This document shows, piece after piece, positions 7,084-19,576 of a DNA stretch of 64,000 nt. The stretch covers positions 1,708-65,707 of the forward strand of contig CAYOTX010000001.1 in the NCBI GenBank assembly GCA_964407015.1, written 5' to 3'. A program made the translations under genes and the position numbers. The DNA comes from an uncultured Candidatus Saccharibacteria bacterium (GTDB lineage: Bacteria; Patescibacteriota; Saccharimonadia; Saccharimonadales; Saccharimonadaceae). Within the stretch, counting starts at the first letter, position 1. Every line of letters starts with the position of its first letter. Below the pieces are notes generated by a model. That model searched no databases. It worked only from the letters and a program-made list of their open reading frames with translations, and had not been told where the DNA came from.

Positions 7084-8099
7084 AAATAATAGAGATAGAA
7101 AGCCAGGCGAAGTGGGACGGATTTATCACTTCGCACCCGGAAGCGAACTTTTTGCAGTCGTGGGATTTTTACGAATTCCATAAAGCGCGTGGCAAAAAGG
7201 TAGTACGGCGTGCGGCGGTAAATGATAAAGATGAAATAGTAGCAGCTTATGCTGGGGTGGTAGAAACTGCCAAGCGTGGCACACATCTAGCCATTGCTGG
7301 TGGGCCAATTATAGACTGGGAAGATAAAAAGTTGGTGCGCGAGATTTTCAAAGATATTAGAGAAATAGGGAAAGGGGCGGGTTGTGCTTTTGTGCGAATA
7401 CGGCCACAGTTACCGCTTTCTGACAATTCCTTGAAACTGATGCAAGAATTAGAATTAAAAAAAGCGCCGATGTATTTATCAGTAGAATATGCTGGAATAT
7501 TGGACTTGAAGAAATCTCGGGAGGAGATTTTAGCGGGAGCATCGCAAGGGTTCCGCCGGAAACTTCGCAAGGCCGAGAAAAACGAAATAGAAATTACCGC
7601 CGATGCTGAGAAAAAATCCATTAAGGAATTCTGCGAGTTAGAAAAAAAGCACGCCGAACGACAAAAATACGTAGCGTTTTCTAGTAGTTTTCTTACCAAG
7701 CAATTTGATGCGTTTGCTAAAAATAATGAGGTATTAATATATACTGCGAAAAAAGATGGGGAGATTTTAGCACAGAATTTTATGATATTCTATGGGGCGG
7801 AAGCGAGCTATCATTATGGCGTATCTTCGCAGCTTGGCACAAAGTATTCGGCAGCACCACTACTCCATATGGCGGCGATGGACGAGGCCAGAAAACGCGG
7901 TTGCACGCGATATAATCTGTGGGGGATAGTGGGGCTAGACGAAAAAACGCACCGGTTTTACGGCGTAAGTGAATTTAAACGTTCATTTGGCTGTGAAGAA
8001 TTAAAATATACGCCAGCACATGATATGATTTTAAACCCGGTGAAGTACCAACTAACAAAAATAGTTGAAACTGCCCGTAAAAAAGTTAGGCATATATAA
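7080..8099 (+). CDS. FemAB/FemX-family peptidyltransferase (second paralog)
   Basis: NFLQSWDF, GGPIIDW, YNLWGI, FKRSFG; GTG at 7080 overlaps the previous stop. Confidence 0.9.
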   Translation: MKIIEIESQAKWDGFITSHPEANFLQSWDFYEFHKARGKKVVRRAAVNDKDEIVAAYAGVVETAKRGTHLAIAGGPIIDWEDKKLVREIFKDIREIGKGAGCAFVRIRPQLPLSDNSLKLMQELELKKAPMYLSVEYAGILDLKKSREEILAGASQGFRRKLRKAEKNEIEITADAEKKSIKEFCELEKKHAERQKYVAFSSSFLTKQFDAFAKNNEVLIYTAKKDGEILAQNFMIFYGAEASYHYGVSSQLGTKYSAAPLLHMAAMDEARKRGCTRYNLWGIVGLDEKTHRFYGVSEFKRSFGCEELKYTPAHDMILNPVKYQLTKIVETARKKVRHI

Positions 8100-16590: not shown

Positions 16591-18258
16591 TTATCTGGCG
16601 ATACAACGGAGAGTGGCCCCCCGTCGTCTATCCGTTGCATCTTTTATAAATATGCCATTCTGGGTGAAAGCGAAATCAAATGCACTATTATTATTAATGG
16701 TAGATGACCAGTAAAGCCCCTTTGCATCTAGCCCGTTAATAGACGCGCCATCTCCTATGTACCCAGACTTAATGAAATATAGTGGAGGAACTAAGACATC
16801 TGCGATAACATTCAAATTATATAGGTATTTTAGCCTAGCGAACTCATTAGTGGAATTAACCATGGCTTCAGATTGATTAGATATAGTGGACAATCTCCAC
16901 CCTTTAGGGCAAATAGAATTTTTGGGGTTATTAGATACATTATTTGATGTATCTTGTGTTAATGTGGAAGAATCATTGCTAGCAATTGCTACAGTCCAGT
17001 TATAATAATTACCCAATGATGAATGGCCAGTGTTAGTGCTATCGGTTTTATTGGCAGAATATGGTACGGTATTACTATCATTCCAGTCGTCCGCCCTAAT
17101 ACCCTCAAAACCCATAGTCTTCGCAGACATTGCTGGCGTCCAAGTAGTAATACCAGTATTCACATCGTAAGTATATCTACTCGCATAAGCGCCGACAAGC
17201 GAGTGGTCCGTAAGATCGGTATCGTTTGAAGTAAGTGATTTCATCACTTCTTGGCCTTGTTCGTTTGTATAAGCGACTAAATCTAAACCTAAGTTTTGCG
17301 TCATCCAGCAATGCCCATCTTGCAACTTGGCCACCCAGTATAACTTATTATCTCTAATATCTATTAGTTGAGTTTGTGAGGCTTCATCATATGAGCCTAC
17401 TGAATTACAAATATATGAGTTCATGTCTTGCATAGTATAATAAGTGCCGCTTTCTGTGTTAACTGGATTTTTGCCCTGTGATGCGTAAGCTTCGTTAAAG
17501 CCTAAATGGTTGTTGTTGCTACTGGGATGCACCATCAAGTACTTCACTTTCCCATTATAAGTACCAGCAGGCTGTACAGAACTAGCATAGACATCATAGG
17601 TAGTAGCAAAGTATGAACCAGTAATATCAGTATCTATAGTCATATTAGTACCAGAAGCTCTAGAGGCTACTAGTGTATAGTTATTTGGTACTACATTATA
17701 ATTATCGTAGTTATTTACGATAGTAGGAGGAGTAATAGCAATACTAGCACCAGTATCAGGATTAAGACCTGTGCCTATACCAGGAGCTAGTTTCATACCC
17801 CAAGATGATGGAGTAAGACTACTAGAGCTTCCTTCGTCATAAATACCAGTCTTAATATTATAACCATCATTATTACTACTAATTAAATCTGTATTACCAT
17901 CTATGTTATTACTACTACCTATAGCATAGATACTATAGCCATTATTATCATTACAATAAGCATTAACTCTAGTACTACCAATATCTACTGTATGAGTACC
18001 AGCATTAACATTAACTGTATGGGCTCTATCTATACTACTGCTCAAAGTACAAGCAGAAGAAATGGAGATGCTGAGGCTGTCTGAGCTGGTGTTATTATCT
18101 GCGGAGGAATGAGGAAGAGATAAGACTAGGGTAGAAATAATGAGCAATGGGATTAAAATAAGTAATATATTCCGGAATGAATAATAGAAGAAATCTGTGT
18201 AACTGCTTGCTTTATGATCTTTTTCTTTTATTTTAGATTTTGTAGTTCTATAGCCCAT
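16591..18258 (-). CDS. Secreted FISUMP (Fib_succ_major)-type protein A
   Basis: Signal/TM, WxL-like beta domain, DIRDNKLYWVAKLQDGHCWMTQNL, ICPKGWRL, YWSST...RC; SD AAGGTG fits ATG at 18258 (ORF track start 18267). Confidence 0.8.
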   Translation of the reverse strand: MGYRTTKSKIKEKDHKASSYTDFFYYSFRNILLILIPLLIISTLVLSLPHSSADNNTSSDSLSISISSACTLSSSIDRAHTVNVNAGTHTVDIGSTRVNAYCNDNNGYSIYAIGSSNNIDGNTDLISSNNDGYNIKTGIYDEGSSSSLTPSSWGMKLAPGIGTGLNPDTGASIAITPPTIVNNYDNYNVVPNNYTLVASRASGTNMTIDTDITGSYFATTYDVYASSVQPAGTYNGKVKYLMVHPSSNNNHLGFNEAYASQGKNPVNTESGTYYTMQDMNSYICNSVGSYDEASQTQLIDIRDNKLYWVAKLQDGHCWMTQNLGLDLVAYTNEQGQEVMKSLTSNDTDLTDHSLVGAYASRYTYDVNTGITTWTPAMSAKTMGFEGIRADDWNDSNTVPYSANKTDSTNTGHSSLGNYYNWTVAIASNDSSTLTQDTSNNVSNNPKNSICPKGWRLSTISNQSEAMVNSTNEFARLKYLYNLNVIADVLVPPLYFIKSGYIGDGASINGLDAKGLYWSSTINNNSAFDFAFTQNGIFIKDATDRRRGATLRCIAR

Positions 18259-18293
18259 ATGCATCACCTTGTTTAATTATCTTTATCTTTGTG

Positions 18294-18466: not shown

Positions 18467-18509
18467 TTTTATTATACCATGCTAATGATTTTTGTGGTAT
18501 AATTTAGTT

Positions 18510-18580
18510 ATAAAAAGAGAAGCCCTCTAGGAAGACTTCTCTGGGTTGTTTTGATTAGGCTTTAAGGCCTAATCTTTTTT
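18510..18580 (+). ncRNA. Candidate antisense sRNA (two hairpins)
   Basis: TGgTATAAT at 18495-18503; hairpin agagaag..TCTAGG..cttctct; terminator gattaggc/gcctaatc plus T6. Confidence 0.6.
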
Positions 18581-18634
18581 CTTCGGTTTGTTGTCTTTGT
18601 CTCGGTTTATAATGATTAGTGCAAACTGAAACAT
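18569..18634 (-). CDS. Small peptide MFQFALIIINRDKDNKPKKKD (candidate type I toxin)
   Basis: SD AAAGG; TTGAAA-N18-TATAAT promoter (18792-18763); ~125-nt UTR homologous to the 60985-61110 region. Confidence 0.55.
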   Translation of the reverse strand: MFQFALIIINRDKDNKPKKKD

Positions 18635-18979
18635 TATTTAACCTTTCTAGGGCAACTTTAACTTACCTAGAATAGCCGTTTAGTGAGCCCTCACACAACC
18701 ACAAACTCTTTTAGGGCTTGCGTACTCTATGCCCATTAAACACCCGAAGCCAACCCGGCGCTATTATATGCACAGGTGCGAAAATATTTCAACCCCCCTG
18801 ACGATATAATGAAGCCATAAGAGGTTTTACCTCTGGAAAATTTCATATCACGCTTGCGGTAAAAATAAGCCTAGACGGAATAGAAGGGGGATTTATACGC
18901 GGTGATTCTAGATAGCCTAGATTTATCTCCCCAAATTTTTAGTTTCTAACAAAAACAAAAAAACGAAAGGAGAACGAAG

Positions 18980-19054
18980 ATGTCTATAAAGTTTAATCTT
19001 GTATTCAAATTCGGTTCTAAAACGAGAAAAATTACCATCCGTATAGAGTGGTAA
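18980..19054 (+). CDS. Small peptide MSIKFNLVFKFGSKTRKITIRIEW
   Basis: Strong SD AAAGGAG; 3' end overlapped by an antisense transcription unit. Confidence 0.55.
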   Translation: MSIKFNLVFKFGSKTRKITIRIEW

Positions 19055-19097
19055 TCCTTCTCCAAACCTATGGCAAGTTTCTAGAGCTTGCCTCTTG
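19025..19097 (-). ncRNA. Candidate antisense sRNA (two hairpins)
   Basis: TTGACA-N17-TATACT at 19131-19103; hairpin ggcaag-CTCTAGAA-acttgcc; terminator attacca/tggtaat plus U run. Confidence 0.6.
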
Positions 19098-19159
19098 ATA
19101 TAAGTATAAGTGACATTGCAAGAGATGTCAAGATTGCGCGCTAGTGATATAATAGAGGA

Positions 19160-19576
19160 ATGAAGAAGAAAAAGACCCCAGATATGGTGACGGTGAACCG
19201 TAAGGCGCATTTTGATTATGCGCTAGGCGATGAGCTGACGGTGGGAATGAGTCTGGCGGGGCCAGAAGTGCGGGCGATACGCGACCACCATGTGCAGCTT
19301 AAAGGATCTTTTGTGACGATAAGAAATGATGAACTGTGGCTGAATAATTTGACACTCGGTGCAGAAACGGCACGAAATATCAAACTACTAGCCACTAAAA
19401 AACAAATTGTGGCACTAGAACGTGAAAAAGTAGCGGGATCTACCATTGTGCCGGTGAAGTTGCTGGGCGGTGGGCGCCATATAAAATTAGTGATAGCGGT
19501 AGGTAAGGGCAAGAAAAAATACGATAAGCGTGAAACTATTAAAAAGCGCGATATAGAGCGGGGGAGATACGCGTGA
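19160..19576 (+). CDS. smpB: SsrA-binding protein
   Basis: NRKAHFDY, L.G.EVRAIR, GKGKKKYDKRETIKKRD. Confidence 0.95.
   Translation: MKKKKTPDMVTVNRKAHFDYALGDELTVGMSLAGPEVRAIRDHHVQLKGSFVTIRNDELWLNNLTLGAETARNIKLLATKKQIVALEREKVAGSTIVPVKLLGGGRHIKLVIAVGKGKKKYDKRETIKKRDIERGRYA

Follow-up and report, generated by a model that had tools for sequence, protein, structure and literature searches.

The module and its neighbourhood

The DNA analysed here, called the window, is a stretch of 64,000 nt from the 0.83-Mb genome (43% G+C, 98.8% complete) of an uncultured Candidatus Saccharibacteria bacterium. Saccharibacteria are tiny epibiotic bacteria with genomes of ~0.8 Mb. Between a gene for a surface protein and smpB, the window holds a small open reading frame (ORF) whose end is overlapped by a predicted antisense small RNA (sRNA) gene, together with an inverted module of a second type, here called type A (Table 1). 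An earlier note on this sequence had described the ORF as preceded by a strong Shine-Dalgarno (SD) sequence and opposed by a TTGACA-N17-TATACT promoter driving a two-hairpin RNA, the whole lying between a FISUMP gene and smpB. All of these elements were found in place, the FISUMP similarity scoring below its cut-off. No Pfam family matched the surface protein at E ≤0.001.

Table 1. Coordinates of the features of the locus (positions in the window; + and - denote strands)
Feature	Position	Strand	Basis or remark
Gap holding the module	890 bp		between the minus-strand surface-protein gene (16591-18267) and smpB (19160-19576)
Surface-protein gene	16591-18267	-	558 aa; weak FISUMP domain (TIGR02145, 30.2 bits against a cut-off of 41.65)
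Inverted type-A module	18500..18882	-	promoter 18792..18763; ORF 18634..18569 (MFQFALIIINRDKDNKPKKKD); sRNA on + strand, ~18510-18582
5' UTR hairpin GGGGG...CCCC	18886..18932	+	predicted fold; stem pairs counted on 48 homologues
5' UTR hexamer UCUAGA	18907-18912	+	complementary to the loop of the 3' hairpin of its own mRNA
Shine-Dalgarno AAAGGAG	18966-18972	+	read from the sequence; 7 nt 5' of the ATG
ORF, 24 codons, MSIKFNLVFKFGSKTRKITIRIEW	18980-19054	+	translation; divergent subtype of a 24-28 aa peptide family
Predicted antisense sRNA, ~75 nt	19018..19096	-	5' hairpin with loop CUCUAGAAA, linker AUAGGUUUGGAG, terminator hairpin
sRNA terminator hairpin	19024..19062	-	followed by a U-run at 19017-19023
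Two-strand hairpin	19072..19092	both	serves the mRNA as 3' hairpin (loop UUUCUAGAG, hexamer 19080-19085) and the sRNA as 5' hairpin
sRNA promoter TTGACA-17-TATACT	19131..19103 (-35 19131..19126, -10 19108..19103)	-	11/12 consensus match
smpB	19160-19576	+	PF01668, 110.9 bits

The module lies 105 nt upstream of smpB, on the same strand, and the arrangement is kept in another genome of the genus, G500. A promoter-like site for smpB (19125-19153, plus strand; ATGTCA-17-TATAAT with a TG) overlaps the -35 box of the opposing sRNA promoter (19126-19131), so that the two promoters may interfere with each other. Neither tmRNA nor any other known RNA was detected beside smpB by ARAGORN and Rfam searches of the window and region. 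The motif CTCTAGRA occurs seven times in the window against 2.7 expected occurrences. Another motif, near TTCTATTCCG(C/T)CTAGGCTTA(A/T)TTTTACC, was seen at the upstream edge of modules of both peptide classes and in either orientation relative to the promoter: in the window (18846-18880, reverse complement), on contigs C7, C8 and C11 of the same genome (G000) and at loci L042, L071 and L073. It may represent a module boundary or an insertion site.

A multi-copy family in one genus

Judged from the sequences, the module family is not a product of chance, and its conservation in relatives is the strongest evidence for this. BLAST searches with a relative's copy of the module found matches in 50 of 201 genomes of the genus (Candidatus Nanosyncoccus in the NCBI nomenclature), with up to five copies per genome in many genomic contexts, and no convincing match in other genera of the class. 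A DNA profile run on the fetched loci distinguished 53 full and 25 partial modules. With a peptide profile, matches were obtained in 10 of 36 genomes of the genus; outside it, the same profile applied to 364 genomes of the class gave a single marginal match, interrupted by an internal stop. The genomes that carry the module are recorded as metagenome-assembled genomes of Candidatus Saccharibacteria or Candidatus Nanosyncoccus from the guts of sheep, goat and buffalo. Genes of 24-28 codons and RNA genes of ~72 nt are too short for standard gene callers and therefore look like intergenic sequence. In the open-access literature, no paper was found that treats type I toxins, antisense RNAs or small proteins in Saccharibacteria, Patescibacteria or the Candidate Phyla Radiation.

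The flanks of the copies are diverse: the 34 upstream sides form 27 clusters and the 37 downstream sides form 23. The module therefore moves, or is acquired and lost, irrespective of the sequence around it. The window genome itself has a second copy, on contig C7, with 91% identity to the first, confined to 18880-19137. When contig-end artefacts were excluded, 22 partial copies remained; they are truncated at the 5' side, and ~17 of them extend from the middle of the ORF to the sRNA promoter, that is, they consist essentially of the sRNA gene alone. Damage to the ORF was also found in the family, as frameshifts (L036, L085) and as loss of the stop codon in the C7 copy.

Two further observations concern the variety of the family. 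A loose tandem array on contig C1 of genome G372 (164906-167904; L009, L021) packs several full and partial copies into 3 kb, and the ORF of one of them begins with GTG. A sub-group comprising L045, L048, L066, L076, L089 and their relatives has another 5' hairpin (CGGGAAT...ATTTCCCG), two or three CUAG motifs and another leader, and still obeys the rule of loop complementarity described below.

The peptide

The family consensus, MEIEFYFKFxRKPKTKKVTVVVE, describes peptides of 24-28 aa that align cleanly, with insertions and deletions in whole codons. The subtype in the window, ...FGSKT[RK]KITIRIEW, is also found in three other genomes (G500, G450 and G456), and the window ORF differs from its G500 orthologue by one conservative residue change. 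In the N-terminal half, outside the overlap with the sRNA, third codon positions are the most variable and pairwise pN is 0.22 versus a pS of 0.75; the ATG and the A-GGAG core of the SD are invariant or nearly so. As far as these alignments can tell, the ORF is a real gene and its peptide is under purifying selection.

The peptide has a mean GRAVY of -0.53, 40% charged residues, a net charge of +2 and no uncharged run longer than five residues. Over the first nine residues, the hydrophobic moment is 2.62 at beta periodicity versus 0.57 at alpha periodicity, in agreement with the beta-like alternation of hydrophobic residues that had been noticed earlier, and the sequence suggests two amphipathic strands with a lysine-rich turn between them. 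By composition and moments, the membrane-spanning segment that is typical of Hok, Fst/Ldr, TxpA, BsrG, Ibs, TisB and AapA is absent. Searches of Pfam and NCBIfam with the window peptide, two relatives and a type-A peptide returned no family at E values up to 10.

The antisense RNA gene

The RNA predicted to start at ~19096 consists of GGCAAG-CUCUAGAAA-CUUGCC (a 6-bp stem with a 9-nt loop), a linker and a 17-bp hairpin followed by GUUUU. Its overlap with the message takes in the final ~12 codons of the ORF as well as the mRNA's 3' hairpin. The predicted minimum free energy is -27.2 kcal/mol (z = -4.36), and none of 200 shuffled sequences folded as well. The gene is conserved across the family. 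A promoter matching the consensus at 9 or more of 12 positions was found at the same place in 65 of 78 copies, with a -35 box that is mostly TTGAC(N), a -10 box that is mostly TATAAT or TATACT and a spacing of 16-18 nt. In 64 of the 65 promoter-bearing copies, a run of at least five T residues follows the hairpin on the minus strand; on the plus strand no T-run follows it. In the extended terminator stem of the window subtype, two G-U pairs of the minus strand become A-C mismatches on the plus strand. The predicted sRNAs of the family are 65-80 nt long (median 72) and fully complementary to the 3' region of the mRNA. The stem of the first hairpin covaries strongly, for instance with 22 CG and 18 UA pairs at one position and 24 GC, 7 CG, 5 AU and 2 UA at another. 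No Rfam family reached its gathering score in the window.

In many copies (L035, L024, L007 and L058 among them), the -10 box of the sRNA lies in the loop of a perfect palindrome of 12-14 bp (CCTGCTACCAT...ATGGTAGCAGG), a feature that the window copy does not have. A DNA-binding protein might use such a palindrome as its operator, or the palindrome might form a hairpin that stabilises the 3' end of the mRNA.

Covariation between the loops at the two ends of the message

Two hexamers of the form NCUAGN', located on the same strand in the 5' UTR and in the loop of the 3' hairpin, were found to be mutually complementary across 48 full modules. Eight combinations (UTR/3' loop) occur, the most common being UCUAGA/UCUAGA (25 modules), UCUAGA/UCUAGG, which contains one G-U pair (nine), and UCUAGG/CCUAGA (nine); CCUAGA/UCUAGG, ACUAGG/CCUAGU and GCUAGA/UCUAGC were found once each. 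All six pairs can form in 46 of the 48 modules and five of six in the other two. The combinations GCUAGA/UCUAGC and GCUAGG/CCUAGC were found in two copies outside the alignment. Over the 48 modules the kissing helix is 98.6% paired, and the value falls to 60% or less when one partner is slid along the alignment. The variation is in the outer pairs, with 36 AU and 11 GC at pair 35-279, and 34 UA, nine UG, one AU, one CG and one GC at pair 30-284. For the structure as a whole, none of 500 shuffles matched the pairing, the covariation score or the count of cells with double changes.

On a tree built without the hexamer columns, the UTR hexamer underwent at least six changes, and both independent A-to-G changes at its last position were accompanied by a U-to-C change in the partner. 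The compensatory changes counted on the tree are consistent with a kissing helix; the independent events number ~6-8, too few for a significant sign test at single positions. The covariation signal is the same whether the 5' loop pairs with the 3' loop or the 5' loop is identical to the sRNA loop for some other reason. Being complementary to the 3' loop, the sRNA loop has the sequence of the UTR hexamer. Direct pairing of the UTR loop with the sRNA loop was also considered and rejected: in modules with asymmetric hexamers it would mostly comprise four or five pairs (six in the UCUAGG class, with two G-U wobbles), and the pairing of the UTR with the 3' loop of the mRNA stays at five or six pairs in these modules. 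This poor pairing with the UTR therefore argues that the sRNA mimics the UTR and does not target it, so that the two would compete for the 3' loop. Another candidate, a small local stem displaying the UTR hexamer, was dropped; stems of 3 bp or more can form in every copy, and 86% of shuffled controls form them as well.

The resemblance between the sRNA and the 5' end of the message extends beyond the loop. The sRNA linker (GGUUUGGAG in the window) repeats the conserved 5' end of the canonical mRNAs (GGGUUGGAG), and folds of single sequences predict pairing of the 5'-terminal GGGUUGGAG with the CCAACC linker that follows the stop codon. This predicted helix rests on single folds, the 5' end being almost invariant and the linker aligning poorly.

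Promoter and leader of the canonical message

Twelve copies were examined upstream of the ORF. In 11 of them a promoter, GGGGGTTGA-N17-TATAAT, is followed by the 5' end GCGGGTTGGAG and a leader of ~85 nt that lies 5' of the GGGGGG hairpin; promoter and leader together occupy ~130-150 bp, and the message predicted from this promoter to the 3' hairpin is ~300-340 nt long. RNAalifold, applied to 28 leaders and to 27 full-length messages, paired the leader segment UAUAGAUUCCCC with GGGGGGAUUUAUA. Over the 28 sequences this helix between the leader and the hairpin arm is 95.8% paired, against at most 67% with the partner slid, and it shows few double changes. The C-rich strand of the hairpin pairs with the SD in seven of nine single-sequence folds, with probabilities of ~0.7-1.0 that are mostly near 1; counted by alignment column, 76% of the cells of this anti-SD:SD helix are paired. 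When the leader was removed from the folded sequence, the G-rich and C-rich strands paired with each other and the SD was open.

The window copy is the exception among the 12, having neither promoter nor leader. Compared with the C7 copy and the syntenic G500 locus, its homology ends at 18880-18882; from 18882 onward the G500 locus is 85.6% identical. Upstream of this breakpoint, G500 has 193 nt containing the promoter, the leader and a short flank, where the window has 382 nt containing the inverted type-A module. No promoter-like site matching at least 9 of 12 positions was found on the plus strand between 18330 and 19120. Because the promoter and leader of the family have been lost, the window copy probably has an ORF with little or no expression, guarded by an sRNA gene that is live. 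For the same reason, the outcome that the earlier note had named as refuting its reading, an ORF that is not translated, may apply at this locus.

The C7 copy (7457-7707, L002) has the full promoter and leader. Its stop codon has changed from TAA to CAA, so that the ORF runs on through the 3' hairpin and has 43 codons instead of 24; the change keeps a G-U pair in the terminator stem of the sRNA. Thus, both copies in the window genome deviate on the side of the ORF and both keep the sRNA gene.

Type-A modules and cross-talk

The type-A modules encode peptides of 20-21 aa, such as MTIQINLLCIIFPNRKRRSK and MFQFALIIINRDKDNKPKKKD. The loop rule applies to them too: their UTR hexamer is UCUAGG and their 3' loop has CCUAGA, compared with UCUAGA/UCUAGA in the class B copy of the window. 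In the earlier note the ORF studied here had been assigned to a distinct peptide family using a common sRNA architecture and was judged not obviously homologous, in peptide and UTR, to the other three. The distinct class stands: the class B DNA profile detects two copies in the genome and no type-A module. So does the common plan, in which a small ORF is met by a convergent two-hairpin sRNA and the loops are centred on CUAG. The two classes are not unrelated, the promoter and leader start GGGGGTTGAAA-N17-TATAAT-GCGGGTTGG being common to type A and the canonical class B copies.

Cross-talk between the classes through the common loop had also been considered possible, but the loop is not a handle of that kind. 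The bases flanking the core of the loop covary, within each module, with the 5' UTR hexamer of the module's own mRNA. Non-cognate kisses could form, with one wobble between the type-A sRNA loop and the class B 3' loop and with five pairs between the class B sRNA loop and the type-A loop; complementarity is lacking between the hairpin stems of the two classes, and therefore such a kiss could not extend. Cognate sRNA-mRNA duplexes have energies of -146 and -132 kcal/mol, by construction, and the search for a duplex of the class B sRNA with the type-A mRNA gave a result no better than shuffled sequences (z = -0.17). The type-A sRNA on the class B mRNA gave z = -3.5 by laying its U-rich terminator tail on the purine-rich SD-AUG region, with long internal loops; the tail (18568-18582, plus strand) can pair with 12 of 13 bases of the SD-to-AUG region (18968-18982, plus strand). 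This match is probably the generic complementarity of a U-tail to a purine tract.

A model for the module and its alternatives

Taken together, we consider it probable that the locus is one of the many copies of a genus-wide module laid out as a 3'-overlapping type I toxin-antitoxin pair, in which, at this position, the ORF is probably silent and the sRNA gene is intact. The steps by which such a module might work are drawn from covariation and folding. In a canonical copy, a sigma-70-type promoter would give rise to a message of ~300-340 nt, in which a long leader is folded and a strong SD precedes an ORF of 24-28 codons, and a convergent consensus promoter would give rise to an antisense RNA of ~72 nt, fully complementary to the 3' end of the ORF and to the 3' hairpin and terminated intrinsically within the ORF. 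The leader of the full-length mRNA would pair with the G-rich strand GGGGGGAUUUAU, freeing the C-rich strand to cover the SD, and the hexamer loop of the 5' UTR would kiss the loop of the 3' hairpin, leaving the message closed, untranslated and shielded. The sRNA, whose loop is identical to the 5' loop, would compete for the 3' loop, zip into a duplex of ~75 bp and block or destroy the message. RNase III is encoded in the genome, and Hfq was not detected in it. From the complementarity and the presence of RNase III, we infer that the antisense RNA would prevent synthesis of the peptide.

What the peptide does is a separate question. It may be, and we propose it tentatively, that the module represents a new class of true type I toxin-antitoxin system, the first from the Candidate Phyla Radiation, in which the toxin is a soluble cationic beta-hairpin peptide and the 5' end of the mRNA copies the recognition elements of its own antitoxin (the loop hexamer and the GGUUGG linker), which would make the message untranslatable and resistant to the antitoxin until it is processed. 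A somewhat unlikely alternative is that the peptide is a harmless small protein, for example a beta-hairpin binding nucleic acids or ribosomes, whose level is tuned by a cis-antisense RNA, the likeness to a toxin-antitoxin pair being one of layout only. The soluble-looking, highly charged and net positive character of the peptide, which lacks a membrane-spanning stretch and matches no known toxin family, would suit such a protein, and purifying selection suits any functional protein. However, the module is multi-copy and patchy and sits in varied contexts, damaged ORFs are frequent, 22 copies have been reduced to the sRNA gene and the mRNA is predicted to be heavily locked; these features suggest a dangerous product or a selfish element and not a housekeeping regulator.

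It is improbable, though compatible with the toxin-antitoxin layout favoured above and not opposed to it, that the sRNA is the functional product here, and perhaps generally, the ORF being a decaying remnant and the sRNA acting in trans on the C7 paralogue or on other RNAs with CUAG loops. The near-consensus sRNA promoter beside an ORF with no recognisable promoter, the frequency of copies consisting of the sRNA gene and the identity of the C7 paralogue, high enough for the window sRNA to pair with most of its target region, point in this direction; the intact ORF, SD and 5' hairpin of the window, with the one conservative change from G500, argue against long neglect. Finally, that the ORF and hairpins form a leader or attenuator of smpB is highly improbable despite their position upstream of that gene on the same strand, the retention of this arrangement in G500 and the lack of a plus-strand terminator after the 3' hairpin, given that other copies have at least 23 different downstream contexts, that smpB has a promoter-like site of its own and that the conserved terminator works on the minus strand only.

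If the toxin-antitoxin layout is real, a conserved, multi-copy peptide gene guarded by an antisense RNA would represent elaborate RNA control without Hfq in reduced genomes. If the peptide is indeed a toxin, the type I repertoire would gain a peptide class without a membrane helix. The module would also offer a compact and testable RNA device in which an antisense regulator is mimicked by the 5' end of its own mRNA.

Comparison with known type I systems

T1TAdb describes type I systems as a toxin ORF of 20-60 aa on an mRNA of 150-400 nt, with an antisense RNA of 60-200 nt that pairs with the toxin mRNA (PMC8594479). In the module the ORF encodes 24 aa (24-28 in the family), the canonical mRNA is predicted at ~300-340 nt, the window copy having no promoter, and the sRNA is predicted at 65-80 nt, all within these ranges. 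A long-distance interaction between the 5' and 3' ends, typical of type I toxin mRNAs in T1TAdb, has its counterpart in the 6-bp helix of the modules. For another such feature, an SD sequestered by an anti-SD sequence, seven of nine single folds predict the pairing and 76% of alignment cells are paired, with RNAalifold choosing the partner helix between leader and arm. By comparison with Rfam, Pfam and NCBIfam, in which it has no match, and with a peptide that is not hydrophobic, the module belongs to no described family.

The closest likeness in layout is to the systems of Gram-positive bacteria. TxpA/RatA, BsrG/SR4, BsrE, YonT and SprG/SprF have similar module sizes and a similar convergent arrangement overlapping at the 3' end, and in bsrG/SR4, txpA/RatA, bsrE/SR5 and yonT/SR6 of B. 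subtilis the overlap with the antisense RNA lies at the 3' end of the mRNA and takes in the end of the ORF, as it does here (PMC8594479). First contact in this group is made between loops, as proposed for the module, and binding of SR4 at the 3' end of bsrG alters the pairing around the distant SD and promotes decay of the RNA (PMC3834814). Unlike this group, whose peptides are hydrophobic and membrane-associated, the module encodes charged, beta-amphipathic 24-28-mers, and it has no sequence or Rfam similarity to its members. Further, its 5' UTR carries a copy of the sRNA loop that covaries with the 3' loop, a feature that the abstract on SR4 does not mention for bsrG (PMC3834814).

The proposed self-locked message follows the logic of hok/Sok of plasmid R1 and aapA1/IsoA1 of Helicobacter pylori, which have an inert, folded full-length mRNA, sequestration of the SD, a kissing-loop antitoxin and cleavage by RNase III (PMC5416894; PMC8594479). 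The antisense RNAs of hok/Sok and aapA1/IsoA1 are located within the mRNA or at its 5' side, and activation occurs by 3' processing, whereas the antisense RNA of the module lies at the 3' end. In the module, the contact between the two ends is a 6-bp loop-loop pairing supported by covariation, the terminal helix is predicted and the locking elements are at the 5' side.

The par locus of pAD1 resembles the module in its convergent transcripts (RNA I, which encodes Fst, and RNA II), in a terminator region common to both and in an interaction initiated by loops. Fst, however, is a membrane peptide, unlike that of the module, and fstAT, the best-scoring Rfam family in the region, reached 17.6 bits against a gathering score of 72 (E = 4.3). 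The two also differ in what the 5' end of the message offers to the antisense RNA: RNA II pairs with 5' direct repeats of RNA I, whereas the 5' element of the module is identical, and not complementary, to the sRNA loop.
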